This document shows, one piece after another, positions 32,287-64,000 of a stretch of 64,000 nucleotides of DNA (its first letter is position 1; each line of letters opens with the position of its first letter). This stretch comes from Tubulanus polymorphus. Its lineage: Eukaryota > Animalia > Nemertea. The position numbers were made by a program, and so were the translations under genes. The stretch covers positions 17,087,101 through 17,151,100 of the forward strand of contig NC_134025.1 of NCBI RefSeq assembly GCF_964204645.1, in the 5' to 3' direction. The notes under the pieces were generated by a model. That model ran no database searches. It saw only the letters and a program-made list of their open reading frames with translations, and was not told the origin of the DNA.

Positions 32287-32556
32287 TTATATTAGAGAAA
32301 AAAGCGAAAAAAAATATTATAAGTATTCTTCAAATGATACTAGAAAGTTAAAGTTAAAGAATTCTAGTATTGACTACTGATACTAGCTATTTGAATTTAA
32401 AGAGTTTCTATTTGAATCTTATCAAAATCTATTTAATCTAGTGTTAACAAGAATTGCAAAAGAAAATATTAAAAATTAAAATAGAAATAATTGTTAGTTG
32501 AAGGTATGCAATTTTTATTATATTTTATTTGAGATATATTAATCTTTAACCACTTA

Positions 32557-38800: not shown

Positions 38801-39047
38801 ATACTGTAAAAACAACCGACTGGGATTGGGCCAGCAATCGCAAGCAAAGGTCATGCAGTGAACCGACCTAGGCTACAATATTCGAGCCTCGGTCAGTGCT
38901 AACAGCTGAATCACACGTTCTACGCAAACCCGCACTGCTTGGTAACAGACTATCATTCCTTTGACCGAAGCATAACCGTTTTTCTTTTTTCAGCTTTACA
39001 ATTGATTCCATGAATTTAATAATTCCATTTTCGAATAATAATGTGTT

Positions 39048-39928
39048 AAATGTGCATTTTGAAATTTTTGATTCCTTTTTTTCTTTGTCATGAATAATTG
39101 TATTCCATCTTTAGTGTTCTGTAATTTTTTCCCAGAACCATGTAATGAATTATCCTCTGTTGTTCTGAAATCTAACCATAGTGCGTATTTATTACCTGTA
39201 TAATAATTAATATTACAATTTTCAGATGATTTTACTTTTTCATTCATAAGATGTTTTCTAATTTCTGGCCATTGATCTATCATTCTCATTCCTTGACAAA
39301 ATATTTTATTTGCTATTCCTTCGATAGTTATTTATACTTTTGTTATTTCAGGATTATAATAATTATCAACCTGTATTGCGCCATTACAATATGTTGCAAT
39401 GGTAAAAATATTAATATACCTTTAATAGATCTTCTTGGGAAGTTAATATTCTCATTAATAATTTCATCACTTGCATTAATAGTTACAATTTTAAATTTAT
39501 CAATATAATCATATAATAATGAAAATCCTTGATTGTATTGAGTTTCGAATTGTGTTAGCAATATTTTCATCAGTTACTGTATCATATTCTTAACATTATT
39601 CGATAATTTAATGCATAAATAAATTATAATCATCTAATGAGAAAACTGTTTCTGGCCTAATCTTTATAGTTAATTTTTTAATCAAATATCTTCCAACATT
39701 ATCGACAACATAATTATTATTATTGCCAGTTACTTTTATATCGGCTGATAAATAAATACTATTTGGAACATAAAAAGTATTTTGTGTTAATCTAGGGATT
39801 CTAACATATAAAGTTTCATCAGGATTAATATTAGAAGGATTATGAGTAATTATATGATGAGATCTTTCTGCTTTAATAGCATTAGATATTCTATGATTCT
39901 TAGAAGGATTTATATAACTCCCACTCAT
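39048..39928 (-). pseudogene. Putative major capsid protein of element A (internal deletion, transposon insertion)
   Basis: Near-identical to 60032..61279; deletion near 39605; ends at MHI against the TIR. Confidence 0.8.
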
Positions 39929-39948
39929 TTATTTAACAAAAAAATTAA

Positions 39949-41874
39949 TTATTTATTTTTATCATATTCACTAACCCAAAAATAATTGCACTTAGAACTG
40001 TAATTAGAAATAAAATAATATGTTCAGCAGCAAAGTTAAGAATATTCCCAGCAGATTTCAATATAAAACCAACAATTGACGCAATAACTCCGGGTAAAGT
40101 TGCAGCAGATTTTTTAGATAGATTCCCATAAATATTTTGCTAATTTTTTTAAACCATCCTTAACTTCATCATGTATAGAATTATTATCATTTGGGGGTTT
40201 ATCTGGTTTATTGGGAGTAGGAGTAGATTTTAATGAATTTGATATAGCTAAACCTATTGTTGTAAATACCATAGTTACAGCTGTTAGAATTGAAAGAATT
40301 GTTATTCCTTCTAATTTAAATAATAATTTTATTCTATCTTTCAATGATATTTCAGAATTTGGTTTAATCAACAAATCTTTAAAAATCACTTTTAATCTAT
40401 TAATATTATAATCATATGATTTTAATAATAATTTAATTTCTTCTTTCTGAAATTCTATGTTATATTCTAAATTATCAATTTCTTTTTCTAAACTTATAAT
40501 TCTTTGTCTATGTTCCATTTCATCAATTACTTGATGACCTAAATCAGACTTTAATTGTTCTATTTCTTTATTTTTATCAGTTAATTCTTTTTCTAAAAAT
40601 CTAATTTTAATATCTCTTTTACTTTTTTCATGCGCAATTTTATCAGCTGATTCTTGCATACCATTAATTTCTCTACGTGCTTGTTCAGGAAATGCTTCTA
40701 ATTCATCATCGGTTAAATCCAATAATCCTTTTTCTAGTAAAGATTGTATTCGATTTATTCCAGTTTCAGCACCGGGTGTATCTAAAACACTATTCATCTG
40801 TTCTTCAAATGAATGAACTGTATCTAACATGCTATCAAAATGTTTTACTAATTGTAATTGACTTGAATCATTATCAATTTGTTGAATATCTCTTCTCGAT
40901 GTTTCGGGAGTTGAAGATCTTAATCTATCTGATCGATCTGCATACTCTTCCATTTCTGGATCAACATTAGTAGGATTTGGATTTGGATTTTTAAATGGTG
41001 AATATTTGTTTATATCAATATTAGGAATTGGTTCTTCTTCATTTATTCTATCGAGTGCATTCCATATAATTCTGAGAAATTCTCTACCGCCTTTTGAACC
41101 TTCAATTGTAGATCTCGCTAACATTTCTTAATTTATCTAATCGATCCCCATACTCTTCCATTTCTGGATCAACATAAGTAGGATTTAAATTTGGATTTTT
41201 AAATGGTGAATATTTGTTAATATCAATACCAACATTTGGTTCTTCTTCATCTATTCTATCGAGTGCATTCCATATAATTCTGAGAAATTCTGTACCACCT
41301 TTTGAATGTTCAATTGAAGATCCAGATTTCAGGATGGTACAGATCTTCTTGTCCCATTTTAGATAATTGAATTGATACAGTTTCGTTATTTAATTCAACT
41401 TTATAAAACCATGAATCATTTTTAAATTCTAAATTATTCATGAAATGTGGATCATCTTTTCTAATTTGTTCTGAAATATCTTCTGGTTCAATGTTATATG
41501 TTACATTTTTTGGTAATAATTCTTCAATAACTGTATTTGTTACACTATGTTTTATGTATGATAATTCTTTTTTCAATACAGGGTTTTCTGTTCTTTCTAA
41601 TCTATTAATTAAATCTTTTCTTTCTGGTCTAGTTTTAATTATTATCTCATCGCGGGTTCTTAAATAATCTATTAATTATTCACTTGTTACAGTATCATAT
41701 TTAAATTCATCATAATCATATAATATAGGCCCACTAGAATCATCTTCACCTAAATTAGTATTATATGCTGATTCATCATCATTATCAATATTAGTTTCAT
41801 TAAATTCAGGTTGTGGTTCATCACTTATACCGGGAGCGTCACCAAAAGGTATCCATTGGAATATCTTCTTCCAT
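39949..41874 (-). pseudogene. Coiled-coil membrane protein with variable acidic N-terminus
   Basis: C-terminal half matches 61300..62718 (LEGITILSILTAVTM..); internal about 208-bp duplication at 40931-41307; frameshifts. Confidence 0.75.
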
Positions 41875-43053
41875 TTATATAATAAAAAATTTAAAGTTAA
41901 AATATAATATTCCTCCGATTACAATTCCTATACTAGTTATAGCTAATTTAGCATTTTCATGGGATTTATTATCATCATTAGTTTTAATTATTTCATGTTG
42001 AATATTATCAGTTTTTATATCTTCTGTAGTATTGTAATCTTTTATTTTAGAATCATTATTTAATTTAATATTCTTAGTTTTAGTTTCTGTTGATTGAATA
42101 TGTTTTTTATTTTTTTCACCTTCCATTAATTTTGGAGCAGTGATAATCTTTTTGTTTATATCATTTAATCCAAATGAATTATTTATTGTTGCAGTTTTAA
42201 TTAGATTATTATAACCAATTATACTTCCCATCTTTAATACTAAATCATTAGAAATAATTAATGGATTATGGCCTATACAATCATTTAATCTAATATGTGA
42301 TTTATCTAAATAATTTTGATATCTTACTATATTTTCTGGAATCGATCTATTTTTATCATTATGAATGGAATCTTCAAATAATACTTTGAATTGTTTTTGT
42401 GTATCAAATGAAGTGTTATCATTTCCAACTATTGGTGATGTTGTTTCAACTTGCGGACCTAGAATACATATCAAATAAGTTCTAATAGATTGATTTATTC
42501 TTTGTATACCTGATTTTGTAAAACCTTCACTATTTTCTAAAATAAAATTAATCCATCCATTATTGTTTTGTTGTTGTATATTATTATAATATTTTGGTAA
42601 TTCATTCCATAATAGTGTTCTTATATCTGTATTTGTCATTATTTTTCCAAATTCTTTAGTATATAATATTCCTAATCCACCCATTGTTCCAATTTTTGAT
42701 CTAAAATCATTATTTGAATTAATATTAAATTCATTACATATTTTATAAAACTTAGAAAAATTAATATTATTATTTAGTTCATTAAAATATTTTGAACCTG
42801 GTAAAGGACATTCTAATTCATCTAATATTAATTTTATTTGAAAATATGTATGAAATCTAAAAAGTGATAACATCAATGGTAAACTTGGTTTTTTTAAATG
42901 ATCATTCCAACTTATACCACACCCTGTTGTTGCGCAATAAACAGCAAAATTTAATTGGTTCTGCCAATACTTCATATTAGATTTTAATGACCATTGTTTT
43001 GCCTCATTTAAATTTTTAAAATTAATTGTATACACATGAAATATATTTTCCAC
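41875..43053 (-). CDS. Conserved Polinton-like hypothetical protein (about 400 aa, C-terminal TM)
   Basis: WQNQLNFAVYCATTGCGISW.DH, FRFHTYFQ; frame open upstream to about 43170 but ATG lost; homolog at 62735-64000. Confidence 0.7.
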   Translation of the reverse strand: MENIFHVYTINFKNLNEAKQWSLKSNMKYWQNQLNFAVYCATTGCGISWNDHLKKPSLPLMLSLFRFHTYFQIKLILDELECPLPGSKYFNELNNNINFSKFYKICNEFNINSNNDFRSKIGTMGGLGILYTKEFGKIMTNTDIRTLLWNELPKYYNNIQQQNNNGWINFILENSEGFTKSGIQRINQSIRTYLICILGPQVETTSPIVGNDNTSFDTQKQFKVLFEDSIHNDKNRSIPENIVRYQNYLDKSHIRLNDCIGHNPLIISNDLVLKMGSIIGYNNLIKTATINNSFGLNDINKKIITAPKLMEGEKNKKHIQSTETKTKNIKLNNDSKIKDYNTTEDIKTDNIQHEIIKTNDDNKSHENAKLAITSIGIVIGGILYFNFKFFII

Positions 43054-43204
43054 CTTAACATTAAAATTATTACTTTCAGTAACATAAATATCTAAATCAA
43101 TTAATGAATTAAAAACTTCATTTCTATATGAAATATCTTTATTAAAATCTATTGCATTTAATTGATTTATTATATTGGAAAGCTTTTAGAAAAATAATTA
43201 AAAA

Positions 43205-43632
43205 ATTAATAATTTATTAATTCTTTTAATAATTTATCTTGTTCTTCAACTGTAATATTATCATTCAAACTTATTATATAATCTAGTGTATTTTTCAATT
43301 TATTAATTTCTTTTATATTAGTTTTAATTTTTTCTTTATTACTTTTTATATTTACTTATACCAGTTAAAACACTTGAACTTAACCTAACACACCAATTGA
43401 TATAGCTAAAGGAGTTAATGGACTGAATATTGCTAGAAATGTTATTACAGAACTAATTGTAACTGAACCACTGATAATAACATAATATATAATTTTACTT
43501 TTTAAATATTTTTTCTTTTTTATCTTTCAAGTCACTTTCAAATTCTAATATTTGTTTTTCTAAATATATTTTTAATTTAGTTTTATTTATATCATGAGGA
43601 ATAATGTCAATATTATCAACTTTATCATCCAT
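43205..43632 (-). pseudogene. Small TM protein, decayed
   Basis: T-run-GCTAAATAAATG start; hydrophobic IVISGSVTISSVITFLAIFSPLTPLAISIG; frameshifts. Confidence 0.5.
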
Positions 43633-43814
43633 TTATTTAGCAAAAAAAATTACTAATTAGTAAATTCATATGCTACAAATATAACAATAACTGTTTCGCC
43701 TAAAAATCCAAATTATTTCATATTTCTGTTGTTCTTTACTTGGGGTATAATAATCTGATAATTTAGGTTTGTATAGATGTAATTTTTCTTTATTGGTTAC
43801 CGCGTTATATAAAC

Positions 43815-44087
43815 TCATTGCATCATCAATTGCATCATCACTGATTGAAAATCTCTATGTGAAATCTTCTGATCATATAATTCCTTGTTGATATAATCCA
43901 TATAGTTTTGCCTCTTTTCTCTATATTCTTCTGCAGCTTTATTATATTTCTCTAACGCTAAGTTATGTCTTTTTTGTTCTGATAATGATCCATTTTTATC
44001 AATATGCTTGAATAAATAACCACCACCAGTAAATGCTAAAGCGTTAACAATTGCCGATCCTATAATAGTTATAATTGCAGAAGCCAT
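43815..44087 (-). CDS. Small protein with hydrophobic N-terminus and coiled coil (3' frameshift)
   Basis: MASAIITIIGSAIVNALAFTGGGYLF...EQKRHNLALE; second copy at 1188-1282. Confidence 0.7.
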   Translation of the reverse strand: MASAIITIIGSAIVNALAFTGGGYLFKHIDKNGSLSEQKRHNLALEKYNKAAEEYREKRQNYMDYINKELYDQKISHRDFQSVMMQLMMQ

Positions 44088-44328
44088 TTATTTAGCAAAA
44101 AAATATGCATTTATATGGGAGGAATATATTTTTGTTTTTCCAAATAATCAATAGTTAAATTAGATAAAGTAACTACTAATGTTAATTTTAAGATATCATT
44201 TATGTCAAATCTATCAACATTAACACTTCCCATTTTAAATACTTTTTATAATACCATTGAATAACCAACAATTCCAACTGATAGTAAGGCGCCATTATAT
44301 AATCCAGTTATTATCCACTTATTATCAC

Positions 44329-44673
44329 TCATTTATTTATCAAAAAATTACTATCTTCAGAATATTTAGTTATCTTAGTGATAATTATTTCAACATTTAT
44401 TTCATTTCTACTTTTATGATTATCATATATTTTAGATAATATATCTTTAATATCATCAATAATTCCATCTTCATTTAATTCATAATATTCTAAAGGTGTT
44501 TTAATTAAATCAATTACTTTTTCTATATTATAATTTTCTTTATTAATCATTGATGCATTGTTAAATGATTTACTTTTTATATCAGTAATTACATCATTGA
44601 CTTTAATTCTCATTTCTTTACCATGTTTAAAATCAAACCCAAAACATATACTCGGTCCAACAGTTATATTCAT
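44329..44673 (-). CDS. Polinton hypothetical protein (114 aa)
   Basis: T-run-CACTATATAAATG start; decayed homolog at 2101-2412. Confidence 0.55.
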   Translation of the reverse strand: MNITVGPSICFGFDFKHGKEMRIKVNDVITDIKSKSFNNASMINKENYNIEKVIDLIKTPLEYYELNEDGIIDDIKDILSKIYDNHKSRNEINVEIIITKITKYSEDSNFLINK

Positions 44674-44690
44674 TTATATAGTGAAAAAAA

Positions 44691-44830
44691 TTACTCTCTA
44701 CATCTTATAACTAATTCATATATCACAGGAAAGTTATTCAAATCAATTAAATATCCATTATGATTTCTAATTGCTAATCTAAAATTATTAAATTGAGGAA
44801 TGCATGGTTTGAAATCACATTAACTGTATT
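44691..44830 (-). pseudogene. Probable penton (minor capsid) C-terminal remnant
   Basis: FNNFRLAIRNHNGYLIDLNNFPVIYELVIR resembles the I.D..G..IDFNG penton C-terminal pattern; fused by deletion to a remnant of the 4388-type ORF. Confidence 0.5.
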
Positions 44831-45019
44831 GTCACAGTAACTGTAACAATATTTTTAATTAGATATTTCTTATGGATTGTTAATTCTTTTAACTTCTTGA
44901 ATTTATAATCTACTGATTTGACATTTGACGTATCTTTGATTCTATCTAGAATGATTTGTTGTTCTCACTGTGAGCTTGTTTACTCTCAATTTATAATATA
45001 TATTTTTATTAAAATTTGA

Positions 45020-47483
45020 TTAACACGTTATAATCCTGTTCATTATTTCCTTCTCTTTTGTTTCTTCTCTTTTAAATCTTAAGTATTCATCTAAATTACA
45101 ACCATATGCAACTGTGTGTATACCATCATCTAAAATATATCTTTTATCATCAAATGGGTTTAGACTGATCTTCTCTATCTCTTCAATAAACATTTCATGA
45201 TCTTCAGATCTTAAACATCTCATCTTATGTTTTCTAACTTCTTCATTGAATATACAATTGATGTAGTCTTTGAAATGAATATTCTTTTCTACTACGCTTT
45301 TGGTAATTCCTTTTAACTTTTTAGATTCATGAGTTTTAGTTTTATATGAATACATTTTAGATTTAATACCAATGAATTCAATCATTTCTTCACCACCCAA
45401 TTCATCCCGGGAACTTTTTTATTATCATTGCTAAACAATTCATGATCTTTAATTCATGATGTTTTTAAATCATCAGTTATGTTATTAGTTTTTAACTTTA
45501 ATATGTAACTGTCAGTATCAAAATATAAGATTTGAAAATTGATTGTCTTAGCTTGTAAGTTACAATTCTTATGTGCTGCGCCTCTAAACTTTCCATTCAA
45601 ATGATCATGGTCTCTAACCTTTTTACCTTTTAGATTAAATGTCTTTTCACAATAATAACATTTATCTGCAAACTCAAATGCTTCTTTATCTTCTTCTGTC
45701 ATAATTATTTCTTTATTTGTATCTAATAGTTTACTAAATTTTATTTCATACTCGATTAATAAGTCACAAAAATGATTGATAACATTTTCATTTCTATAAT
45801 GATAATATTCACTTTTAATTAGTTCTGGATAATCAGATTTTATATATAACCCGAAAGCTGCAGCTGATTGATGAATCTTTTTAATAGTATTTGTTATTAG
45901 GGGATCTGAATAGTCAATTATATCATTTTCATTAGAATTTAATTTCTTTCTTTTATGATATATTTCTTTTCTATCTTGATCAGTTAATTCTTTATTTGAT
46001 GATTCAAAATCTCCATATATAACAAATGGTACTTTATTCTTGTAATCATATTTTTTGAATTCTAATATTTTATCCTTTTGCATTTGGTAAAACTATCTTA
46101 CAATAATCATGATTATCACATAATTGTTTATGATTTAATAATGCACTTTCAGTTCTCAATTTATGTAAACATTTTCTACATAGATATATTTCATTATCAA
46201 AATCATTTTCTGATTTAAAAAATAAATCGATTTGTTTAATCCACATATAATGATTTTCATAATATAGTATATCTATAACATCATTTGAATCATAATCTTT
46301 TGATAGGTATAAAGGTTCTAATGTATAATGTTTTATATCGTTACCTTTCTTATTTGGTAATTTGATTAGATCGAATACATTTATTTTTAGATTATTATCT
46401 CTTTCTATTTTTGGGATATTTTTAATTCTAACTGGATAATTGTCTGTCTTATAATTATTTTCGAATTGTTTATAATTTGTTAATTTAAAACTATGTGTAA
46501 TATCTTCTGTTGGATGTAAGCAACTAATTATTGTCCATAGAAAACATTTATCATCAGAATTTTGTACATTTATAACAGCATTTGTTTTAAATGGTATTTT
46601 GATATAACTTGATCCATTTATATTATCATGTTTATAATATGATGAATTATTTACATCAATTGGTTTTGATTTAGTTAACTTATTATATTTTGTGTTATAA
46701 ACGTGTAAACTCATAAATATTATTTCATCGAATATTAAACCAGATCCTTCAAAATATTTCTCTTCTATTTTAGTTTTTACTTCATTATAACATTTATCTA
46801 ATTTATCATCTATATGTTGTTTTGAAATAATATGTTGTGAATGAGAATGTATATTATATATTGGTTTATCTTCAGATTTTATAAACTTTACTTTAGAAGA
46901 TATGCTAATTTTAGGGTGTTCAACATCTGTGATTATTTTTACAATATTTTATATATTTTCTAAATTTTTTTTATTTTCTTCTAATGTTTTTCCTTTATGA
47001 AATTTAAACTCAATAGCTGCTGGACCATTATCACTTTTAAATGCTTCGGTTATCTATTTCCTTTTTATTATCTAATGAATTAATATAATTTCTTACATCT
47101 TCCATGTATGGTCTTTTATTGCTTAATTTATTTTTTATTCTTTTAATTGTCTTCTGTTTCTTTTCATTATCATTATCAAAATAATCCTCACCTAAAATCA
47201 TTATTCTTATTTCTAATATGACTTTTAGATTTTAAATGTTCTTTATAATATCTTTTCTCACTGAATGATTGATTATATGTATCACATTTGTATGTTTCTT
47301 TTTCATTCTTTAATTTAGTTTAACTTTAGTTTTGTTTTTCTCTAATTTAGTTTCTAATATATCATCTTTATTTTTTAACTTTAATTTATTTTCTAAATGT
47401 GTTCTAGTTTTATTGTGTCTTGCTTTTTGGGATTTATCTATATTGATTTTACATGTTGAACAGTAGTACTTATTTGCTTCCAT
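45020..47483 (-). pseudogene. polB: Protein-primed PolB of element A, intein-free, large internal deletion
   Basis: DDKCFLW..HYMW, YGDFES (ExoI), VRDHDH..RGAAH..CNL, then a jump to YFDTDSY, KSKMYSY, KKLKGI, LNPFDDKRY. Confidence 0.92.
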
Positions 47484-47714
47484 TTTAATACTAAATTTTT
47501 TATTAAAATTGATTTTAGAAGTTATTCATTTATATTTTATTCATGTATATGAATATTTTAAGAGTAATAGGGATAATAGGGGTTCATATCAAAGGTCGAA
47601 AGGGCGGGCGAGTAAAAAATGAAAAATAAATTCGAGTGTGCGAGAATTTATTTTTCATTTCTAATGAGCTCGACCTTTCGACCTTTGGTATGAAACAACT
47701 TATTCCCTATTACT
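47440..47714 (-). repeat. Right TIR of element A
   Basis: Ends CCCTATTACT followed by GGTAGC; internal palindrome 47563-47714. Confidence 0.9.
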
Positions 47715-48530
47715 GGTAGCACACCGAGTGCCTCCAAGACAACTAAAATACGACGAGAAAGGAGTTAAACAACCGGACAGAATAATTGTGCGTTTTTTCG
47801 ATCGAAAGAGGCGGAATTTTATCATTCGGAAACGTGCGACATTAAAGGATTCAGGGATTATAATACGCGAAGATCTTTGCCCTGAAATTGCGAAACTAGT
47901 TAATCGCGCGGTTAACTCGAGACTATATAACAAAGTGTGGACAGTCATTGGAGAAGTATTCGGTTGCACTGAGAATGGTGAGAAAAAAAGAATTAACATT
48001 TTCAAACCACTGCCGAAGTAATAGCAGTACCGGTAATTAACTAATTGTGACTAACTAACTTTTTTCCTTTCTTCATTCGTTTATGCGTTATACATTGTTA
48101 GCAATACAGGTATCTCTAAATGGATCTTACCAATAATTCAAATATTTGGTCAAACTTTCAGAATTACCAAATTATTGATATGTACATATTAACTTACCAA
48201 TCCTAATATAGATCCGTTTGGTTTAAATAATAACCCAAATGCTTTTCTGGGTAACCAGACTAAATTATCATGTTTTTGCTAAATGCTTTTGCTATATGTA
48301 TCATCTATTCTCAACTCATATGAAAAGTTCAATGAAACTCAATACACGCAATATTACAACTTGTTCTGTAATACATGAATATGAATTATATTGGTATCTG
48401 GGGATCTTAGCTAAAGTTCTATTTTTGAAAATTTTAGTAAAAAGAAATGTGTTTAGGTAATACAGATCCAGAGAGCCGCATTAAAAACATAAGAAACAAT
48501 CCCAATCTATTATTAAATGTATTCGGCGAT
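47715..48530 (+). mobile_element. LINE ORF1 C-terminal half and downstream sequence
   Basis: VAHRVPP...PDRIIVRF..RK...LKDSGIIIREDL...VWT..G; ORF ends at 48021. Confidence 0.75.
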
Positions 48531-48614
48531 AGTAATAGGAAATGTGTTGTTTCATACCAGAGGTCGAAGGTCGAGACACCACTCATCACCACAAGTATTT
48601 TTTTTCCCTAATAA

Positions 48615-53676: not shown

Positions 53677-53951
53677 AACAGAAAATCAATATCATCATGC
53701 TCGAAATCACTATTGGCTTCTTCATTTTCATTTAATTGTTCTTGTATAATTTGTTTAGGTTCTTCCATTTCATTTTTCTCATTTAAATAAAGTTCTATCT
53801 TGTACCACATTTCATATCGCTCTCTTTGTTTCTTTTTGTTTGTTAATTCGTCAAATTGAATTATAATATCGATGTTTAAATAATTTACAATCTTATTTAA
53901 AAAGAATTCATAATTAATTGAATCTGTTATTCTATTTTCCAAATGATACAT
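53673..53951 (-). CDS. Small hypothetical protein
   Basis: 92-aa ORF; DSI.YEFFLNKIV remnant also at about 3325-3365. Confidence 0.45.
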   Translation of the reverse strand: MYHLENRITDSINYEFFLNKIVNYLNIDIIIQFDELTNKKKQRERYEMWYKIELYLNEKNEMEEPKQIIQEQLNENEEANSDFEHDDIDFLF

Positions 53952-53969
53952 TAATATTTGTTTGAATGT

Positions 53970-54340
53970 TTATTTTATATTTTCCGTATCTTCTGTTAAT
54001 TTAGGTTTTTCATAATAATCGTTAAATAATAAATATATATACATTTTCTTTTGTTTTGTGTTAAATTTTGATGGAATAATTGTTTTTATAATATCTTTTT
54101 TAGTTATTTCACCATTTTTATTTTCTATCATTTTCATTTTTTCAAGCCATTGCATATATTCTGGTGTATGATCTTCTATAGAAAATGTTTTAAAAATTTC
54201 ATCTAGATACTTTAATTTTGGTTCTATGACAGAATCTCTAGTTTTTTCTTCACCCCATAAATTCTTTTGCCATCCACATTCATTACAAAATAACACAGTA
54301 CCTTCTTGCCTTAAGGTCGCATAATTACATTGTGGGCATT
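53970..54340 (-). CDS. Small CxxC-containing hypothetical protein (may be the 3' part of the Zn-finger gene)
   Basis: CPQC...FCNECG..NLWGEEKTR; decayed homolog at about 2900-3300. Confidence 0.5.
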
Positions 54341-54347
54341 TTTGTTT

Positions 54348-56137
54348 TTAATTTATTGGTAATAGATCTTCATTAAGCTCCTGGTATTTTCTTACGTTTT
54401 CTTTATGTTTTATTGTTCTATTATGTAGATTTGAATTACTTGTTGTAATAATCAATTTACAATATTTACAATAATATGTTTTTCTTGTTAATTCATTATA
54501 TTGTTTTTCTAACTTTTCAACTGTTTCTTTATCTGGTAACGTTTTCTCATATTTTATTTTTTCTAATAAACTATTTTTTCTTTCATTGATTTCTGCTTCA
54601 ACTTTATTAGAAATTTTATCTATATGTACTTTACGAAATTGATGATTCTCCCAATCTTCTATATTTTCAGCGGTGTTGTCATATCGCGGAAAGACGGAAT
54701 CGCGGAATTTTCCAAAAACGCGGAATTTCTTCATTCTTACTTTAAATAGAAAACGGGTTTTCCCACGGGGATACCCACTGTCGGACAGGGCACCGGACCG
54801 ATCGATGCAACGAGTTAGGTTCGAGTCCCATTATTTGCAGGCAATTTTATATGGAATTATTATATCACGATACCGTTGACTGGCTGCCACCTGTAGAAGA
54901 AGTCAGAATCAAGTGGGGTGAAAGAGACCAGGCACCTAATGTCTATTTCTACTGGGCAAACTTCGGTTATCGAAGTTCATCGACTTTTTGAGAACTTCAG
55001 AAACGAATATTATCAGATAAATATTGAGCACGTTCGCGGTGTCGGACCGTAGTTGTAGATGGTTGCAAACATGAAATCCTACGACCAAACAAGAATCGGT
55101 TCAAATTCCTTCGTCAAATTCGTCCAGTACCGGTACCAATGAGATTCTTTTGATCCAAATAATCAGCATAGGAACATATATGTTATAGCAGTCACAAAGA
55201 TAACATTAAAAAAACGAAACCATTTTATAATCTTTCATATCATTTAATTCTAAAAGATAAACCACATTCGCTTATAACAACAATGTAGACACACAACACG
55301 CATGAACAATCCTAAGCCAGAATGAAATGTACATAATGTCTATTTATTTTCGTCTGACATCGATCCAGTTCCACAGTTGTGAGTTAACTCTGAGTTACTT
55401 AGAATCAATTCATTTCCAATGTTTTAAATCCAGAGACCAGAGTCAAATCTTAACTCGGAACTGAGTCCTGGAGAATGACCCATGGTGTCATCAAAAATCC
55501 TACGTTTACGTACCATCGATTTGTATTCCTTCAGTTAATGCAGCGATACTCTGTATCACTGAATTCGCAAAGCACGTATTGCCTAGGTTCTACATTATTT
55601 GGAACAGTATCGTTAAGTTGTTGACTGGCGATATAATAAATTATCAAATACTAATTCCCGTGGTTGAAAACCTGGGTCCGATGCCCTGTCCGACAGTGGG
55701 TATCCCCGTGGGAAAACCCGTTTACTATTTATAGTTAAAATGAAGAAATTCCGCGTTTTTGGAAAATTCCGCGATTCCGTCTTTCCGCGATATGACAACA
55801 CCGTATTTTCAGGGTTATATTTTTTTCGACAAGGCTCACAGAAATGATCTTTTATATTATCCTTGTCATAGGATAAGAAAGGTCTTTTCCAAATAATTTC
55901 AGGTTCAACTTCAACAGAATTACTATTACTTTCGTTACTATCAACATTAGCCGTTGCGCCATTAATTTTACACTCCTCTGAATGTTTTTTAACATAATTT
56001 CTTGAGAATAATTTATTACATTTTGGGCAGTTTAGTTTAGGGGGTTTATAATTTTCATCATGTTTTTTCATATGTCGAGCCATATTACTTTTTCTTAGAA
56101 GTTCACCACAAATTTCGCATGGTATCTTCTCATCCAT
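54348..56137 (-). pseudogene. Multi C2H2 Zn-finger protein split by a MITE
   Basis: CEIC..RHMKKH, CPKC, HFCEPC..NPEN|MITE|IEDWENHQFRKVH, YCKYC; rejoins in frame when 54671-55812 is removed. Confidence 0.8.
54671..55803. mobile_element. 1.13-kb non-autonomous TIR transposon (Mutator-like by TSD)
   Basis: About 127-bp TIRs starting CGGTGTTGTCATATCGCGG; 9-bp TSD TATTTTCAG (54662-54670 and 55804-55812). Confidence 0.88.
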
Positions 56138-56205
56138 TTATTTAGGAAAAATTTTATTAAAATTAATTTTTAGTGATGAGCGGTAATTTTTTTATGTTAT
56201 AAATA

Positions 56206-56358
56206 ATGGTAGAATCAAAAGAATACAGAATATTTGTAGATTCTAGAAGACTTACAAATTATAAATCACATAATTTACTAGTTCAATTAGATAGAGAATT
56301 TAAGAATTGTGTAGATTTAAAATTAGTAAATATAAGTTTATGTAATTCTTTTTATAAT
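56206..56358 (+). pseudogene. Probable penton (minor capsid) N-terminus, cut by a Polinton end
   Basis: RIFVDSR...LVQLDREFKN..LKLVNISLCNSFYN resembles single-jelly-roll penton starts; abuts AGTAATTGG at 56359. Confidence 0.5.
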
Positions 56359-56443
56359 AGTAATTGGAAGATGTGGGTTTCATACCAGAGTACGAGAGTA
56401 CTAAACACCACTCATCACCACAAGTAATTTTTTTTCCTAATAA

Positions 56444-56755
56444 ATGGGAGATAGAAAAGCATTCTTAGCAACAATAAATAACAGAATAAAACCAGCAAAA
56501 AAACAATTTGAAATAAAAAAGTTAGTTGATGTTACAAAAGAAATTGAACATAAAATATTGAAATTAGAAAAGATAAAAACTAAATATGGAGAGAAAGTAT
56601 CAGTGAATTTAAGCTACTGTAATGTTAGTACATCGCGAGAATTTAAAGTGTTTTTACCTGATAAATGGGTTTCATTGAGTACAGAGGAATTAAAAGATTT
56701 AGAAGGATTTAAAATAATATATCATGGAAAAAATGAAGATGGACTGATGATTTAG
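56444..56755 (+). CDS. Small hypothetical protein, homolog of 4388..4741
   Basis: Shared KYG.K..FLPD....LS.E.L..L...IY.GKNE pattern. Confidence 0.6.
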   Translation: MGDRKAFLATINNRIKPAKKQFEIKKLVDVTKEIEHKILKLEKIKTKYGEKVSVNLSYCNVSTSREFKVFLPDKWVSLSTEELKDLEGFKIIYHGKNEDGLMI

Positions 56756-56957
56756 AAATTGTTGATTAAATTTAAAAAAATAAATTAATAAAAATAATGA
56801 ATATCTAGAATCCGAAATGACTTATCTGGACAATTTAATTGCTCCGCATAGATAGACAAAAGTAGTGAGATGGTGCCGTATGGCACCCACATGGTGATAT
56901 TCAATTAATATTCAATTAATTTAAAAAAATTATTTTTTTTGCTTTTTTTCTAAAGTA

Positions 56958-57326
56958 TTAATCCATTTTTTTTATTGTCAATTTTGGAATTTCAGAAGTA
57001 TTTTCACTTTTAATAGCAGTTGTTTCAGGATTATAAATATCATGAATTTTATTTGATTTCTTATACCAATTACACCCAATCAAAATGAATACAATTACAA
57101 ATCCAACTGTAAAATATAGACATTTATCAAATATTCTATTATTAGAAGGAGTAGAAATAACAATATTTTCACCATTTTTATTAACATTTTTATTACTTAT
57201 TTTTTCTTTTACAGCTTTTTTATATTCTTGTGATTTAATTCCTAATTGCCGAGACCATTCAATTTGTTTCTGTGATCTCGGTTTTTTCTTCACAGTTAAT
57301 TCCTTCACTTCTTTCACCTCGCTCAT
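56958..57326 (-). CDS. Small basic TM protein
   Basis: KKKPRSQKQIEW, TM segment; homolog of 15508..15876. Confidence 0.72.
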   Translation of the reverse strand: MSEVKEVKELTVKKKPRSQKQIEWSRQLGIKSQEYKKAVKEKISNKNVNKNGENIVISTPSNNRIFDKCLYFTVGFVIVFILIGCNWYKKSNKIHDIYNPETTAIKSENTSEIPKLTIKKMD

Positions 57327-57864
57327 TTATTATAGAAATATTTTTACTTTCAATATTTGAAAATGTTATAACCCCAGTTGATAATAATGTCATAAATCCG
57401 CCTAATTGAAATGATAAATATCCAATCCATTTATTTAATTCAGTCATAACTAAATAATCATTTTTTAAATCAGCGTATAATCTATTTTCATCTTGAATTG
57501 GCAGCATATAATTACATAATTTACTATAACCTTTTACTACATTTTCTGATATCGCGTCATTAATTCTAGCTGTTCTCGCGGCTTCATAAATCTTAAATAA
57601 TCTAATAATTTCATCTGATTTCATTGTGTCTAATTCATTATAAGTTAAATTTTTACCGACAAAATTTTTACATTTTCCAGATGCTATTAATATTTCTAAT
57701 TGATGTTTACAGTAAAGATAATATTCATAATTATTATTTGTTGTAACATTATTTAAAGCACCATCATCTGGAATTAATTTGTTTTCTGTTATTCCTAAAT
57801 CATCTAAAGTTTTTTCAATTGGAACATCACCATTTTTAGATTTTATTTTCTTTTCACCTACCAT
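57259..57864 (-). CDS. Conserved Polinton hypothetical protein (201 aa)
   Basis: Homolog of 31678..32286. Confidence 0.78.
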   Translation of the reverse strand: MVGEKKIKSKNGDVPIEKTLDDLGITENKLIPDDGALNNVTTNNNYEYYLYCKHQLEILIASGKCKNFVGKNLTYNELDTMKSDEIIRLFKIYEAARTARINDAISENVVKGYSKLCNYMLPIQDENRLYADLKNDYLVMTELNKWIGYLSFQLGGFMTLLSTGVITFSNIESKNISIINERGERSEGINCEEKTEITETN

Positions 57865-57889
57865 TTATATAACAAATAAATTAGTTGTG

Positions 57890-58262
57890 TTGTTGCAACT
57901 AGAATTCAACTAGAACGTAACTAGAATTCAACTAGATTAACAAGCTAGTTGAAATATTGTTGTTTTTATTTATTTCTTGTTAAATCTAGTTGATTTTTGT
58001 TCCAACTACCAATAACTAGAATTCAACTAGAATGTAACTAGAATTAAACTAGATTAACAAGCTAGTTAAAATATTGATAAATCTAGTTGATTTTTTTCCA
58101 ACTACTAATAACTAGAATTCAACTAGAATGTAACTAGAATTAAAATAGCTTAACAAGCTAGTTAAAATATTGATAAATCTAGTTGATTTTTGTTCCAACT
58201 ACTAATAACTAGAATTCAACTAGAATGTAACTAGAATTCAACTAGATTAACAAGCCAGTTGA
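57890..58262. repeat. About 96-bp tandem repeat built of AACTAGA subunits
   Basis: CCAACTAC.AATAACTAGAATTCAACTAGAATGTAACTAG at 58002, 58098 and 58195. Confidence 0.85.
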
Positions 58263-58264
58263 AT

Positions 58265-58874
58265 TTAAATAAATTCATATTTAAATGGTTGTTGTAATCT
58301 AAATAGTAATTTTGATCTTTTAATATTTTTCAACTTATCCATATATTCATTATGTAAAATCATGTGGAATAATATCATTTTCCTCAAGTGCATTTTTCAT
58401 CGATTTTCTATCTTTATTGTAGAATAAAACTAGAAATCTAATGTTTTCTCTAAAGTCTTTAACAATTGAATTATATTTTTGATTTAAAACCCATGTTGTT
58501 ATCCCAAAATGTTTGCCAGAAAAAGCTATATAACATAACTCACTTTCTCTAATTTTTGAATCATGTAAATTTGCACAATCATCTATAATGAATAATGTAT
58601 TTGATCCTTTATAAATATCTATTGCTATTTTAATACAATTATCTAAATTTTCTTTTACTGTTTTAGGATCTAATATAATAAATTTATTATTTCTAGTAAT
58701 ATTTCTATCATAAGTTTGATTAAATTCATATGTTGGACAAAATAATACTATATTATCAAAATAGTTTTTATAAACATGTTCTAATAAATTTAATATAAAA
58801 TAAGTTTTTCCACAATTTGTTACACCAGAAATTAACATATTATGAGGCTCAAATATAAATAATTCCTTATTCAT
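58265..58874 (-). pseudogene. Packaging ATPase with late frameshift
   Basis: GVTNCGKT, LFIIDD; frame breaks near 58355. Confidence 0.9.
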
Positions 58875-60001
58875 TTATATATTTTTAATTTTACTTGATA
58901 ATATCCATTCATTGAATTTATTTGGCCATCCAACCCATTTTACTAAAGAATATTTTTTTCTTTTAACAGTTTTTGTTTTTAATACTTTTTCAATTTTATA
59001 TTCTTGTTCTAGATTTTCAGTAGTTAAACTCAATTCTTCTTCATAAAAATACCCATCAACTTCTTCACCATCTAAATCTTCTAATTTATAGACATATGGT
59101 TTTGTTGTTATTACCTTTTTTATTTTATATATTTCTCTAGTAAAATTTCGATCGTATCCTTTGTCAAATATCTTTTTATACTTAGAAATTCTAACATTTT
59201 GACCAACTTTAAATTTAGGTTCACCAAAATCATCTACAAGAAATGCTCCATATAAATTATTCCAAACAATTTCAGCATTTTCAGGTTTTCTAGCATCAAT
59301 AGGTTTCATTCCAATAGAAGAATGATAAGAATTATTATATCCTATCAATTTTGGTAAAACATCAATCCATTTAAAAGTATTATTTGCTGTAAAATATTTC
59401 CACATTCTTGTTCTTAATGTTCTATTAAATCGTTCAACAACTGCTGCTTTTTTATCTGATTTTGTTGAAAAATATTTAATATTATGATTGTCTAAGAGTT
59501 CATGAACAAGTGAATTATCAAATTCTTTTCCATCATCAAATTGTATTTTTTCTGGTTTTAGTTTATCATCCGAAAGAAATTTTCTTAAAACATTTGATGT
59601 TTGTACAGCATCTTTTCTATAAATTGGGAAACTCCATACATAACGACTAAAAATATCAATTATATTCAATAACCACCAATAATCATCATTATCTTTCTTA
59701 ACATTTTTCATATCAATTAAATCTCCTTGCCACTGTTGATCTACATAACTTACCATAGTTTTACGAGTTTTATATTTTCTAACAATTTTTTTATGTGTTG
59801 TGTATGTTGGTTGTTCTAACATAAATTCATTTATATCTTTATATTTAACTAAATTGTGTGGGATTATCTTAATCTAATTTATCTTGTTTTACTTTACGCC
59901 ATATATTTTTGGTAGAAGAATAAGCAACCGAACTCTCAGGGTTGTAATATAAATTTCTTAAATATTGTTCTTTAGTATTAGGAGTTTTTTTTACCTCCCA
60001 T
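58875..60001 (-). pseudogene. int: rve integrase with complete chromodomain; 5' frameshift
   Basis: WQGDLIDM, QFDDGKEF, VERFNRTL, YKIEKVL..LVKWVGWPNKFNEWI; original ATG at 60001. Confidence 0.92.
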
Positions 60002-60031
60002 TTATATATCGTTAATTTTAACTTTATATTT

Positions 60032-61279
60032 CTAATATTGAATACTATCTAACTGTGAATTTACAATATTTAATTGTGCATCAGATATAATATAAATGTG
60101 CATTTTAAAATTTTTGTCTCCTCTTTTCTTTTTCATGAATAATTGTATTCCGTCTTTAGTGTTCTGTAGTTTTTTCCCAGAACCATGTAATAAATTATCT
60201 TCAGTTATTCTGAAATCTAACCATAATGAATATTTATCGCCGGTGTAATAATCAATTTGATTAATATTACAATTTTCAAATGATTTTACTTTTTCATTCA
60301 TAAAATGTTTTCTAATTTCTGGCCACTGATCTATCATTCTCATTCCTTGACAAAATATTTTATTTGATATTCCTTCGATAGTTATTTCTACTTTTGTTAT
60401 TTCAGGATTATAATAATTATCTACCTTTATTGCACCATTAGAATATGTTGCAATGGTAAAAAATATTAATATACCTTTAATAGATCTTCTTGGGAAGTTA
60501 ATATTCTCATTAATAATTTCATCATTTGCATTAATAGTTACAGTTTTAAATTTATCAATATAATCATATAATAATGAAAATCCTTGATTGTATTGAGTTT
60601 GAATTGTGCTAGCAATATTTTCATCAGTTACTGTATCATATTCTAAACATATATTCGATAATTTATATCCCATATCTTTAACAACGCTAGATAATACAAT
60701 TTCATTTACAGGAGCAAATGTTATCTCAAATATAATACCTTCTTGAATTGAGTATTTATATAAAGGTGCATTATTATTTATCAATTCAAAATCTAATGGA
60801 ATTTTATATTTGCTTCCATAAATCTTTTTTATCAAATTATCTGTGGCACGAGTTACTATTGCGTCATTAGCTCCTGATCTTAATTTATTATGGTTTTCCG
60901 ATTGTATCCCCTGAAATATCATATTATTTCTATTTTCTTTAGTTAACCATAAATCTTTATAATGCATAAATAAATTATAATCATCTAATGAGAAAACTGT
61001 TTCTGGTCCAATCTTTATAGTTAATTTTTTAATCAAATATCTCCCAACATTATTAACAACATAATTATTATCATGACCAGTTACTTTTATATCAGCTGAT
61101 AAATAAATACTATTTGGAACATAAAAAGTATTTTGTGTTAATCGAGGAATTCTAACATATAAAGTTTCATCGGGATTAATATTTGAAGGATTATGAGTAA
61201 TTATATGATGTGATCTTTCTGCTTTAATAGCATTAGATATTCTAGAAATCTTAGAAGGACTTATATAACTCCCACTCAT
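60032..61279 (-). CDS. Putative double-jelly-roll major capsid protein, intact 415 aa
   Basis: Size, beta-strand-rich pattern (L.VRIP, IKKLTIKIG, YKIPLDF, LSNICLEYD, KVEITIEG), position beside integrase and ATPase; resembles Polinton-like capsids; fold not verified. Confidence 0.75.
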   Translation of the reverse strand: MSGSYISPSKISRISNAIKAERSHHIITHNPSNINPDETLYVRIPRLTQNTFYVPNSIYLSADIKVTGHDNNYVVNNVGRYLIKKLTIKIGPETVFSLDDYNLFMHYKDLWLTKENRNNMIFQGIQSENHNKLRSGANDAIVTRATDNLIKKIYGSKYKIPLDFELINNNAPLYKYSIQEGIIFEITFAPVNEIVLSSVVKDMGYKLSNICLEYDTVTDENIASTIQTQYNQGFSLLYDYIDKFKTVTINANDEIINENINFPRRSIKGILIFFTIATYSNGAIKVDNYYNPEITKVEITIEGISNKIFCQGMRMIDQWPEIRKHFMNEKVKSFENCNINQIDYYTGDKYSLWLDFRITEDNLLHGSGKKLQNTKDGIQLFMKKKRGDKNFKMHIYIISDAQLNIVNSQLDSIQY

Positions 61280-61299
61280 TTATTTAACAAAAAAATTAA

Positions 61300-62718
61300 T
61301 TATTTATTTTTAATCATATTCACTAACCCAAAAATTATAGCACTTACAACTGTAATTAAAAATAAAATAATATGTTCAGCAGCAAAGTTAAGAATATTAC
61401 CTGCAGATTTCAATATAAAACCAACAATTGATGCAATAATTCCTGGTAAAGCTGCAGCAGATTTTTTAGATAGTTCCCATAAATATTTTGCTAATTTCTT
61501 TAAACCATCCTTAACTTTATCTTGTATAGAATTATTACCTGGGGGCTTATCCGGTTTATTTGGAGTAGGAGTAGATTTTAAAGCATTTGATATTGCTAAA
61601 CCAATTGTTGTAAATAACATAGTTACAGCTGTTAGAATTGAAAGAATTGTTATTCCTTCTAATTTATATAATAACTTTATTCTATCTTTCAATGATATTT
61701 CAGAATTTGGTTTTATCAATAAATCTTTAAAAATAACTTTTAATCTATTAATATTATAATCATATGATTTTAATAATAATTTAATTTCTTCTTTCTGTAC
61801 TTCTAAATTATCTTTTAAATTATTAATTTCTTTTTCTAAACGTAATTCTTTTTGCCTATATTCTATTTCATCAATTACTTGATGATCTAAATCAGACTTT
61901 ATTTGTTCTATTTCTTTATTTGCATTAGTTAATTCTTTTTCCAAATACATAATTTTTTGATCTCTTATACTTTTATTATGTGCAATTTTATCAGCTTCAT
62001 TTCTTATACTAATAATTTCTCTAATTGCTTCATCAGAAAATATATTTAAATCTTCTAATTGTTGATCTGTTGCATCAAGTAATCCATTCGGTAAAAGTTT
62101 TTCAATTGGAACTTTATTTGATTTAAGTTTACTAGTTTTGGAAGTTATATTCTGTTCAGAAGTTGTTTCTGTTTCTGATTTCTTTTTGATTATTTCAAAT
62201 AATTCATTAATTCTTTGTTTAAATACGTCTATATTATCATCTATTTCTTTTTGCGTAACATCAGTTATTTCATTACTATTACTTATTATTTTAATTTTAT
62301 CTGGTTCTAATTTTGATTCTGCTAATATTTTATTTTTATTATTTTTATAAGTGATATCAATATAATAATCACCTTTCAAACGATAATAACATTTACCATC
62401 TAAAAATTTTAATTGATCTGCTAAAAGTCCAACGTCTTCATCATTTATGTTAAGTTTAGATTTTTCAATTAAATCTTCTAATTTAGGTATTTTGTTTAAA
62501 TTATCTAAATCTTGTTTTACTAAATCTGGGTCTAAATTTTCAGGATTTAATTGTGATTCTGCATTTTTAATATAATCAGGCATATTCAAATTATTATTAT
62601 ATTCTGGCTCATTACCATCATTAAAACTTGTTTCATCAAAATCAGGTGGTTGTTCATCAGTTATGCCAGGTTCATCAAAATTATCCATTCCAATATCTTC
62701 TCCACCTTCTACATCCAT
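61300..62718 (-). CDS. 472-aa coiled-coil protein with C-terminal hydrophobic helices
   Basis: Acidic N-terminus, long coiled coil, GITILSILTAVTMLFTTIGLAI, ALPGIIASIVGFIL, IILFLITVVSAIIFGLV. Confidence 0.75.
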   Translation of the reverse strand: MDVEGGEDIGMDNFDEPGITDEQPPDFDETSFNDGNEPEYNNNLNMPDYIKNAESQLNPENLDPDLVKQDLDNLNKIPKLEDLIEKSKLNINDEDVGLLADQLKFLDGKCYYRLKGDYYIDITYKNNKNKILAESKLEPDKIKIISNSNEITDVTQKEIDDNIDVFKQRINELFEIIKKKSETETTSEQNITSKTSKLKSNKVPIEKLLPNGLLDATDQQLEDLNIFSDEAIREIISIRNEADKIAHNKSIRDQKIMYLEKELTNANKEIEQIKSDLDHQVIDEIEYRQKELRLEKEINNLKDNLEVQKEEIKLLLKSYDYNINRLKVIFKDLLIKPNSEISLKDRIKLLYKLEGITILSILTAVTMLFTTIGLAISNALKSTPTPNKPDKPPGNNSIQDKVKDGLKKLAKYLWELSKKSAAALPGIIASIVGFILKSAGNILNFAAEHIILFLITVVSAIIFGLVNMIKNK

Positions 62719-62734
62719 TTATATAATAAAAAAA

Positions 62735-64000
62735 TTAAAATTTAAAATATAATATTCCTCCTATAACAATTCCTATACAAGTTAAAGCTAATTTAGTATT
62801 TTCATGGAATTTTTTATCATTATCAGTTTTAATTATATCATGCTGAATATTATCAGTTTTAATATTTTCTGATGTATTATAATCTTTTATTTTGGAGTCA
62901 TTATCCAATTTAATATTCTTAGTTTTAGTTTCTGTTGATTGAATATGTTTTTTATTTTTTTCACCTTCCATTAATTTTGGAGCAGTAATTATCTTTTTAT
63001 TTATATCATTCAATCCAAATGAATTATTTATTGTTGCAGTTTTAATTAGATTATTATAACCAATTATATTTCCCATCTTTAATACTAAATCATTAGAAAT
63101 AATTAATAGATTAGGGCCTATACAATAATTTAATCTAATATGTGATTTATCTAAATAATTTTGATATCTTACAATGTTTTCTGGAATCGATCTATTTTTA
63201 TCATTATGTATGGAATCTTCAAATAAAACTTTAAATTGTTTTTGTGTATCGAATGATGTATTCAAATTTCCAATTATCGGTGATCTTGTTTCAACTTGTG
63301 CACCTAGAATACATATCAAATAAGTTCTAATAGATTGATTTATTCTTTGTATACCTGATTTTGTAAAACCTTCATTATTTTCTAAAATGAAATAAACCCA
63401 ACCATTATTGTTTTCTTGTTTTAAATTATCATAAAATGTCGGTAATTTATTGAAATTTAATGTTTCTAAATCCTTTGTTTCTATTTTACCATAACCTAAT
63501 TTATTACTATAGATATTATAAAAACTATTAGATGGTATGGGAAGTGCACAATATTCTGCAATCTTTTTAGGGCAAGGAAGTGATCTTATCGTTCCAATTT
63601 TTGTTCTAAAATCAGAATTATTTATATCTATATTTAATTCATTACAAATTTTATAAAACTTTGATAAATTAATATTATTATCTAATTCTTTAAAATATCT
63701 AGATCCTGGTAAAGCGCACTCTAATTCATTTAATATTATTCTGATTTGAAAGTATGTATGAAATCTAAATAAACTTTGAATTAATTTATATTATAGAATT
63801 ATTCAAATGATCATTCCAACTAATTCCACAACCTGTTGTTGCACAATAAACAGCAAAATTGAATTGGTTCTGCCAATACTTCATATTAGATTTTAATAAC
63901 CATTGTTTTTCATCTTTCAATTTTTTAAAATTAATTAAATATACATGAAATATATTTTCCATCTTTGCATTAAAATTATTAGTTTCAGTAACATAAATTT
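62735..64000 (-). pseudogene. Homolog of 41875..43053, 5' end outside window
   Basis: WQNQFNFAVYCATTGCGISWNDH near 63810-63880; frameshift near 63790. Confidence 0.75.

Follow-up and report, generated by a model that had tools for sequence, protein, structure and literature searches.

Poxvirus-type promoter motifs and a predicted VLTF3-like gene in a clade of animal Polintons

Introduction

It has long been an open question whether animal Polintons (Mavericks) live as autonomous viruses, as transposons, or as parasites of larger viruses. According to the text of Starrett et al. 2021 (PMC8502044), the Polintons termed "adintoviruses" carry genes for a protein-primed PolB, an rve integrase, an A32/FtsK-like ATPase, and capsid proteins and are integrated in animal genomes; the words "promoter," "helper," and "intein" are absent from the main text of that paper. 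Here, we describe a 64-kb stretch of the genome of the nemertean Tubulanus polymorphus (NCBI RefSeq assembly GCF_964204645.1, contig NC_134025.1, positions 17,087,101 to 17,151,100, forward strand; hereafter, the window, numbered from its first letter), which consists of fragments of at least five Polinton-type elements amid host transposons. These elements share the adintovirus gene set; what sets them apart from adintoviruses is their clade-wide TAAATG starts, a gene predicted to be VLTF3-like, and an intein in PolB, and one relative also has a deoxynucleoside kinase.

Of the yeast plasmids pGKL1 and pGKL2, one depends on the RNA polymerase of the other, and to our knowledge they have neither capsid nor integrase. 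As presented in the text of PMC6831550, these protein-primed PolB elements use a TAAA-type initiator, their transcripts have 5' poly(A) leaders, and their RNA polymerase is element encoded. Virophages, as well as Polinton-like viruses (PLVs), are described in the text of two preprints (bioRxiv 2022.07.28.501842 and 2025.10.09.676808) as sharing promoters with their helpers: mavirus, the EMALEs, and PgVV Gezel-14T are integrating double-stranded DNA elements of protists, with helpers of the Mimiviridae type, whose promoters (TCTA or AAAATTGA motifs) copy those of the helper, as shown experimentally, and in which an RNA polymerase is not seen. PLVs also occur physically in entomopoxvirus occlusion bodies and have been proposed to act as hyperparasites on the poxviruses of invertebrates (Barth et al. 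2024, PMC11296320); they encode a protease and PLA2, and neither a promoter motif nor VLTF3 is reported in that text or its supplement. Further precedents are the pacmanvirus transpoviron (text of PMC11788076) and gene transfer from egoviruses to Polintons (text of bioRxiv 2024.03.23.586382).

Results

TAAATG at viral start codons of the window

A preliminary description of this locus had reported a poxvirus-late-like motif, a T run followed by TAAATG, at most viral start codons. All seven strings that it quoted are present at their starts (coordinates give the A of the ATG; eight of the ten sites are on the minus strand), as are all nine sites given as plain ATAAATG. Using homology to intact relatives or to paralogs, and not the motif, we placed 32 viral starts; deleted, mutated, or uncertain ones (near 43200, 45020, and 18309) were excluded, as were the internal ATGs 53951 and 54734 of a broken gene. 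TAA|ATG is found at 24 of the 32, so that "most" is borne out, and the motif also occurs beyond the part of the window first described, at 1282-32286. The eight starts without strict TAA|ATG (2412, 4388, 4782, 7089, 15883, 31311, 47483, and 56206) had been omitted; six of them retain TAAA or TAAAT within 5 nt of the ATG.

Enrichment over background, proposed as a check in the same description, is strong, with 6 to 9% in three backgrounds: TAA stands before 84 of the other 1424 ATGs of element DNA (5.9%, p 2e-23) and 84 of 999 nonstart ATGs that come first after a stop (8.4%, p 8e-20), a comparison that controls for the bias of open reading frame (ORF) calling, and 20,000 shuffles of the upstream 30 nt gave a mean of 2.8 and a maximum of 11 among the 32. 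With duplicates collapsed to gene families, TAA is in the majority in 11 of 16 (p 7e-9). A T run of at least 5 ending 4 to 8 nt before TAAATG marks 13 of the 24 starts versus 3 of the 84 nonstart TAAATG sites, and A stands at -4 in all 24.

The motif marks one clade of Polintons

A capsid profile search of metagenomes yielded 83 fetched loci (the best 80 of 216 metagenome matches), in 68 of which the start of the major capsid protein (MCP) could be assigned. Among 14 close loci (GC 0.20-0.44), the MCP starts at TAA|ATG in 13; of 54 more distant loci, 1 has such a start and 52 have a purine at -3. Together with the window, the close loci make up a supported clade (SH-aLRT 99 in a quick tree from which four short rows were left out; 100/99 in a careful tree of 26 rows). 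Over ORFs of at least 100 amino acids (aa), with identical upstream sequences counted once, TAA|ATG begins 53 of 63 clade ORFs (22 of 26 where the locus has a GC of at least 0.30) versus 4 of 292 in distant Polintons (1 of 50 in their AT-rich subset), 18 of 225 in equally AT-rich viral loci, and 34 of 470 in 72 viral loci selected because they contain the motif once. We made two grouping choices with the motif already in view, placing locus L080 (one ORF) in the clade and setting L028 (10 of 10 ORFs) apart; without them, the counts are 52 of 62 ORFs, from 16 close metagenome loci, versus 15 of 327, with ten of the 15 coming from L028. The comparison with other Polinton clades, likewise proposed earlier, thus finds the motif to be clade specific, the distant Polintons using a purine at -3 instead.

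These counts bear on two other explanations. Chance arising from AT-richness, or a Kozak context peculiar to the host, is extremely unlikely: element DNA is indeed just 22-27% GC, but the three backgrounds, the AT-rich viral loci, and the clade loci of higher GC all speak against composition, and T at -3 is opposite to the context of distant Polintons. The motif could also be translational, serving stop-start coupling or reinitiation on a polycistronic mRNA or acting as an in-frame stop against extension at the N terminus. The genes lie close together, and in 3 of the 24 window starts the TAA is the stop of a long upstream frame, as coupling would have it. The other 21 close no such frame, however, and the triplet before the ATG is TAA, TAG, or TGA in 53, 0, and 1 of the 63 clade ORFs versus 42, 7, and 9 at gene ends, so that TAG or TGA ends 16 of 58 genes and precedes an ATG once. 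Seven divergent gene pairs with gaps of 19-30 bp have TAAATG on both strands, and the motif also stands directly after element termini. For these reasons stop-start coupling fails, and a translational signal, which would also leave the fixed-distance T peak and the VLTF3-like gene described below unexplained, is very unlikely.

Several observations concern the relatives themselves. L028 is a 12.4-kb element with a different PolB type, 37% capsid identity, TAA|ATG at 10 of 10 ORFs, and the same upstream spacing as the clade; a separate origin of its motif found no support, a single clade not being rejected (p-AU 0.216). Sister clades (L059, L060, L015, L067, L061, and L064) have TATAG(A) or TATATA beside the ATG, with TATAG in 11 of 24 upstream 30-mers versus 1.6 expected, which resembles an asfarvirus late motif or a splice acceptor. 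The deoxynucleoside kinase is encoded by the close relative L001 (10340-10981; PF01712, E 2e-31) from a T run plus TAAATG start, and its near homologs form a small separate group. L081-L083 are Polinton capsid contigs within three prokaryotic genome bins, probably as contamination. Counts of AATAAA and T5NT near stops followed AT content and did not discriminate between the groups.

Upstream spacing resembles poxvirus intermediate and late promoters

Upstream of the start, positions -18 to -16 are rich in A and positions -14 to -12 are rich in T in both the clade and L028. T occupies -12, the 9th nucleotide upstream of TAAAT, in 46 of 53 clade starts, 8 of 10 L028 starts, and 21 of 24 window starts versus 15 of 34 control viral TAA starts; at -13, the 10th nucleotide, it is found in 40 of 53 clade starts versus 12 of 34 controls. 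The controls lack the T peak.

In vaccinia virus, according to the text of PMC11980589, late promoters have TAAAT overlapping the start and a conserved T at the 10th nucleotide upstream, i.e., -13, and intermediate promoters have TAAA with an A-rich upstream region; the text of PMC5294985 served as a second source for the promoter definition. The element starts are like these intermediate and late promoters in TAAAT overlapping the ATG, in a T-rich core 9-11 nt upstream, and in an A-rich variant at some genes, and they differ from the late promoters in a T peak one base nearer (-12 versus -13). The poxvirus-late-like label therefore stands as far as architecture goes: the motif is of the postreplicative type, clade specific, opposite to Kozak, and not derived from overlapping stops, whereas transcription by a helper, proposed together with it, is something that we only infer. 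Judged from these sequences, the presence of poxvirus-type promoters in this Polinton clade is well supported.

T-run starts belong mostly to virion-module genes, and A-run starts belong to the ATPase, the integrase, the HNH-like gene, and one small gene; this split, noted post hoc, resembles the late and intermediate classes, with the pol start 48615 and the starts 56137 and 56444 as exceptions. Early-type motifs (AAAATTGA and AAAAnTGAAAA) are scattered, and their placement is not convincing.

A predicted VLTF3-like gene

In a rescan of unknown ORFs, 53673-53951 gave a weak VLTF3 match. This ORF closes a single long gene (53673..56137, minus strand), which has a T run plus TAAATG at its start (56137), encodes zinc fingers followed by the VLTF3-like domain, and is broken in the window by in-frame stops and an inverted-repeat insertion from the host (~54669-55803). 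It is open in relatives: P0281 is 47% identical and shares its N terminus with the L001 gene, and P0282 is 36% identical. A second, more decayed copy lies at 2574..3373 on the plus strand. The last 224 residues (53676..54347, minus strand, read with X at one stop) comprise a Zn ribbon and a TFIIB/cyclin-like domain, with a predicted VLTF3 (A2)-like fold (AlphaFold2 [AF2], pLDDT 78). A Foldseek search of BFVD at E<=1e-3 gave four matches (2e-5 to 3e-4), namely, cowpox VLTF3 (2e-5; 226 columns, TM 0.51), two entomopoxvirus VLTF3 proteins, and one unnamed protein; VLTF3s of other nucleocytoplasmic large DNA viruses (NCLDVs) rank lower (E>=7e-3). Foldseek found nothing in the PDB at E<=1e-3, and the top matches there are TFIIB-family chains of Pol II/III initiation complexes with middling Z scores (6.3-7.3).

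The predicted domain is like vaccinia VLTF3 (A2L) in its Zn ribbon, helical domain, and about equal length, and it differs in being fused behind C2H2 zinc fingers and in its low identity (15-23%); no RNA polymerase, capping enzyme, VLTF1, or VLTF2 was seen in the element. A poxvirus origin of the gene is likely, to judge from the predicted fold, and the gene lends independent support to a poxvirus-type reading of the promoters. In 2024, VLTF2 and VLTF3 homologs were said, in the text of PMC11253617, to be undetected outside Nucleocytoviricota; VLTF3 is given in figure legends of the two protist-PLV preprints (bioRxiv 2022.07.28.501842 and 2025.10.09.676808). Another VLTF3-like protein is encoded in the sister clade at L059:6543-7052 (Pfam E 6e-4; poor predicted fold, pLDDT 41).

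Candidate sources of the transcription machinery

We lean cautiously toward helper dependence, in which a co-infecting helper of poxvirus-like type would supply the RNA polymerase that reads the element promoters. TAAATG with a T-rich core ~10 nt upstream would then act as a poxvirus-type intermediate/late promoter; initiation inside the AAA, with slippage, would add a nontemplated 5' poly(A) leader, which would compensate for T at -3 and for the missing templated 5' untranslated region (UTR). The VLTF3-like factor, with its added zinc fingers, would probably steer the helper machinery toward element DNA, and expression would take place in the cytoplasm, inside the helper's factory. We infer that the Polinton likely works like a virophage, with a cycle of integration, silence, and expression upon helper infection. 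In some subfamilies, a host Pol II promoter probably also drives the replication genes, which would permit transposon-like copying without a helper.

A number of results weigh against helper dependence on a poxvirus. Scans of IMG/VR for the capsid, intein, motif, and VLTF3 gave no virus with locus-wide TAA|ATG and no candidate helper: the capsid and VLTF3 scans had no match, none of the 72 loci from the motif scan has TAA|ATG locus-wide, and the 17 large-virus loci found through the intein lack the motif as a rule (13 of 178 ORFs). An RNA polymerase gene of the elements themselves may have been missed, the relatives being incomplete. On the side of the VLTF3-like gene, the AF2 model was built on five sequences, and the Foldseek order may favor poxvirus VLTF3 partly through its length match to the query. 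The Pfam score of the C-terminal piece (PF04947, 15.4 bits, E 0.015) is under the cutoff of 25, and intact P0281 and P0282 have no match to PF04947; we therefore name the gene VLTF3-like and do not file it in the Pfam family. The truncated 12.4-kb L028 has the motif, and no VLTF3 was seen in it. Mriyaviruses have VLTF2/VLTF3 without an RNA polymerase and are thought to be nuclear (text of PMC11253617). One element end (4101-4351) carries a CCAAT/TATA Pol II-like promoter with a splice-donor-like GGTAAGT, and in the same subfamily pol and the 103-aa gene start at AAA|ATGG. None of the 120 listed intein relatives (the best of 231, most of them unnamed) is named as a poxvirus. Finally, short back-to-back gene spacing was rejected as an argument for the clade, being equally common in the Kozak-type clade (p 0.62).

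Some of these points suit an autonomous nuclear virus, whose own TFIIB-like VLTF3 would redirect host Pol II to TAAATG after an early phase of ordinary Pol II transcription, with no helper involved. The TFIIB-like predicted fold, the mriyavirus precedent, and the nuclear phase that an integrase implies are in its favor, as is the CCAAT/TATA module, which is itself multicopy (depth 138 versus 24-41 in the lowest flank). Set against this, T at -3 and the lack of space for a 5' UTR would fit a slipping poxvirus-type polymerase better than Pol II, the core-to-start distance of ~10 nt is much shorter than TATA-to-start, and a VLTF1- or VLTF2-like partner was not seen. The depth of the CCAAT module is also just about a fifth to a seventh of that of the adjacent pol (650-1010), so most copies are without it. 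We consider autonomy unlikely on balance.

Still less probable, in our view, is a donor of another kind: either a relative that encodes an RNA polymerase (a sister Polinton, or a cytoplasmic linear element like yeast pGKL2) or a different NCLDV whose TAAAT initiator is unrecorded. Yeast virus-like elements do combine a TAAAAT initiator, their own RNA polymerase, and 5' poly(A) leaders (text of PMC6831550), and the intein ties the clade to Mimivirus-type PolB. Yet no RNA polymerase subunit turned up among the ORFs scanned: neither an RNA polymerase nor a capping gene was seen in the ORFs of the window, L001, and L028, none of which holds a complete element, and unknown ORFs, searched by sequence as unfolded proteins against Pfam and the PDB, gave no RNA polymerase subunit. 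In addition, the sampled giant-virus loci do not use TAA|ATG, and the VLTF3-like domain ranks poxviruses first.

The intein itself lies at PolB motif C (52157..53220, plus strand), has a LAGLIDADG-type endonuclease, and is broken; the same site in the other pol copy (45.1-47.5 kb) is empty. Among its listed relatives, protein-primed PolBs of Polintons come first, followed by PolB and topoisomerase from large viruses, including mimivirus (44%). The earlier suggestion that the intein fits co-replication with a helper virus thus holds for contact with large DNA viruses, but the relatives point to PolBs of Polinton and Mimivirus type. A motif C intein with a homing endonuclease is common to several unrelated Polinton polymerases (P0122-P0126, P0134, and P0144) and giant-virus PolB. 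The IMG/VR scans for the deoxynucleoside kinase and the HNH-like gene gave one locus and one partial match, respectively.

Element copies and their decay

The genes of the window elements encode a protein-primed PolB, an rve integrase, an A32 ATPase, a capsid protein, an HNH-like protein, and several conserved small proteins. PolB matches PF03175 on one piece (E 8e-7) and, although broken in the window, is colinear with intact P0122; the integrase matches PF00665 (E 2e-10 and 3.5e-9), and the packaging ATPase matches PF04665 (E 2e-12). The Capsid_N match of the capsid protein, a candidate double jelly-roll protein, is weak (E 0.007, below the cutoff); its 172 homologs are mostly unnamed, and in the fetched loci they adjoin ATPase, integrase, or pol. 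By its pol, integrase, and ATPase, the element is classified as a Polinton, and since this gene set is of the Polinton type, we do not claim membership in Maveriviricetes (Lavidaviridae).

At the right of the window, the MCP (60032..61279, minus strand; an open frame of 415 aa) starts at T7-N6-TAAATG; next to it are a conserved virion-module gene for a coiled-coil protein with a hydrophobic C terminus (61300..62718, minus; T run plus TAAATG) and a conserved, broken gene of ~440 aa without an assigned function that runs off the window edge (62735..64000, minus). The virion module, with its coiled-coil membrane protein and small hydrophobic genes, presumably resembles, to judge from position, the Beta-type module of adintoviruses. 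On the other side are the rve integrase with a chromodomain, broken near its 5' end (58875..60001, minus; TAAATG at 60001 with an A-rich upstream region), the truncated A32-type ATPase (58350..58874, minus), the TAA of whose start doubles as the integrase stop, and two conserved small genes (56958..57864, minus; TAAATG starts at 57864 and 57326). Tandem repeats of ~96 nt and 11 nt separate the ATPase from the next gene in two subfamilies (57878-58283 and 29228-29625).

A terminus-like leader at 56356..56755 (plus) runs into T run plus TAAATG (56444) and a 103-aa gene with a weak SSB-like lead. It cuts a 5' fragment of a conserved gene, likely for a minor capsid protein, that starts without strict TAA|ATG (56206..56358, plus). 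Another such leader, with T run plus TAAATG at 48615, precedes a protein-primed PolB in several frames (48530..53676, plus). A second decayed element (39047..47716, minus) has a terminal palindrome, a pol with a Kozak-type start (47483), and virion-module genes whose starts at 44673, 44332, 44087, 43632, 41874, and 39928 (minus) have T run plus TAAATG. A third fragment (11017..17630, plus) comprises a 410-nt terminal palindrome, the HNH-like gene (11657), small genes, an integrase with a non-TAA start, and an ATPase; its inverted duplicate (28300..33200) adds a 226-aa zinc-finger gene (28399, TAAATG). The Pol II-like promoter inside an element end (4101..4351, plus) has five CCAAT boxes, TATAAATAG at 4285, and GGTAAGT at 4345 and lies upstream of Kozak-type starts at 4388 and 4782. 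An Atlas search gave no match for a 366-aa protein and, for a 117-aa protein, unnamed clusters and a weak SSB lead only.

Shared element ends begin with AGTAAT at five places, and the two ends of one copy are never both inside the window. An imperfect terminal palindrome of ~155 nt is found at 6856..7010 and 47562-47714, with a decayed copy near 3880-4000. Long imperfect palindromes at 6856-7010, 47562-47714, and 11017-11424, with DNA folds of -50, -47, and -126 kcal/mol (without a shuffle control), are unusual for protein-primed elements, and the 155-nt type has AAAAnTGAAAA, the vaccinia early core, in its arms. Host sequences include a Harbinger-type transposase with a Myb/SANT gene (8666-10246) and a decayed reverse transcriptase (22257-22919) that has no Pfam match and that we take to be Penelope-like; the Harbinger/Myb pair and the retroelement suit an invertebrate host. 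A large inverted duplication (14678-24279 versus 29619-38904, 86-95% identity) takes in element sequence as well as DNA of a host retroelement.

In whole-genome reads of the same species, depth is 650-1330x over element DNA versus 24-41x in the lowest flank; with depth so far above the flank, the element family is multicopy, the ratio giving no copy number, as the lowest flank may be repetitive as well. None of the copies in the window is complete and undamaged at once: stops and frameshifts break up the polymerases, a host insertion interrupts one gene, one element end has cut into a gene of another element, and one copy extends past the window edge. For this reason the earlier view of the locus as a bank of endogenous provirophages is unsupported, and the copies in this window are a graveyard rather than a shown reservoir.

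Discussion

A predicted VLTF3-like gene together with a clade-wide poxvirus-type promoter appears to be new for an animal Polinton: a literature search, which covered titles, the starts of abstracts, and few subscription papers, gave no description of a Polinton with TAAATG, a poxvirus late promoter, or a pox-type VLTF3. The entomopoxvirus PLVs are the nearest case, being Polinton-like viruses proposed to parasitize invertebrate poxviruses; they were found in the occlusion bodies themselves, whereas the present case is known from cis signals and a transcription factor gene. The elements share with mavirus and its kin an integrating double-stranded DNA genome in which an RNA polymerase was not seen, and they differ in their poxvirus-type motif, their animal host, and a helper dependence that is proposed from sequence. 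The yeast plasmids are alike in initiator and DNA polymerase type, but encode the RNA polymerase that they use.

The promoter and the transcription factor make the question of whether animal Polintons are viruses, transposons, or parasites specifically testable. If the elements depend on such a helper, a poxvirus-like virus should exist in hosts in which we found none. As a wider proposal, which we put forward tentatively and with some doubt, a widespread clade of animal Polintons may be true virophages of an undescribed lineage of invertebrate poxviruses; a captured late factor would pull the helper RNA polymerase onto their own promoters, or jam it. With sister clades having other motifs beside the start (TATAG/TATATA) and, in one of them, a further VLTF3-like gene, the promoter of each Polinton clade would name its helper family. 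If this is true, host genomes would be a fossil record of unknown large DNA viruses.

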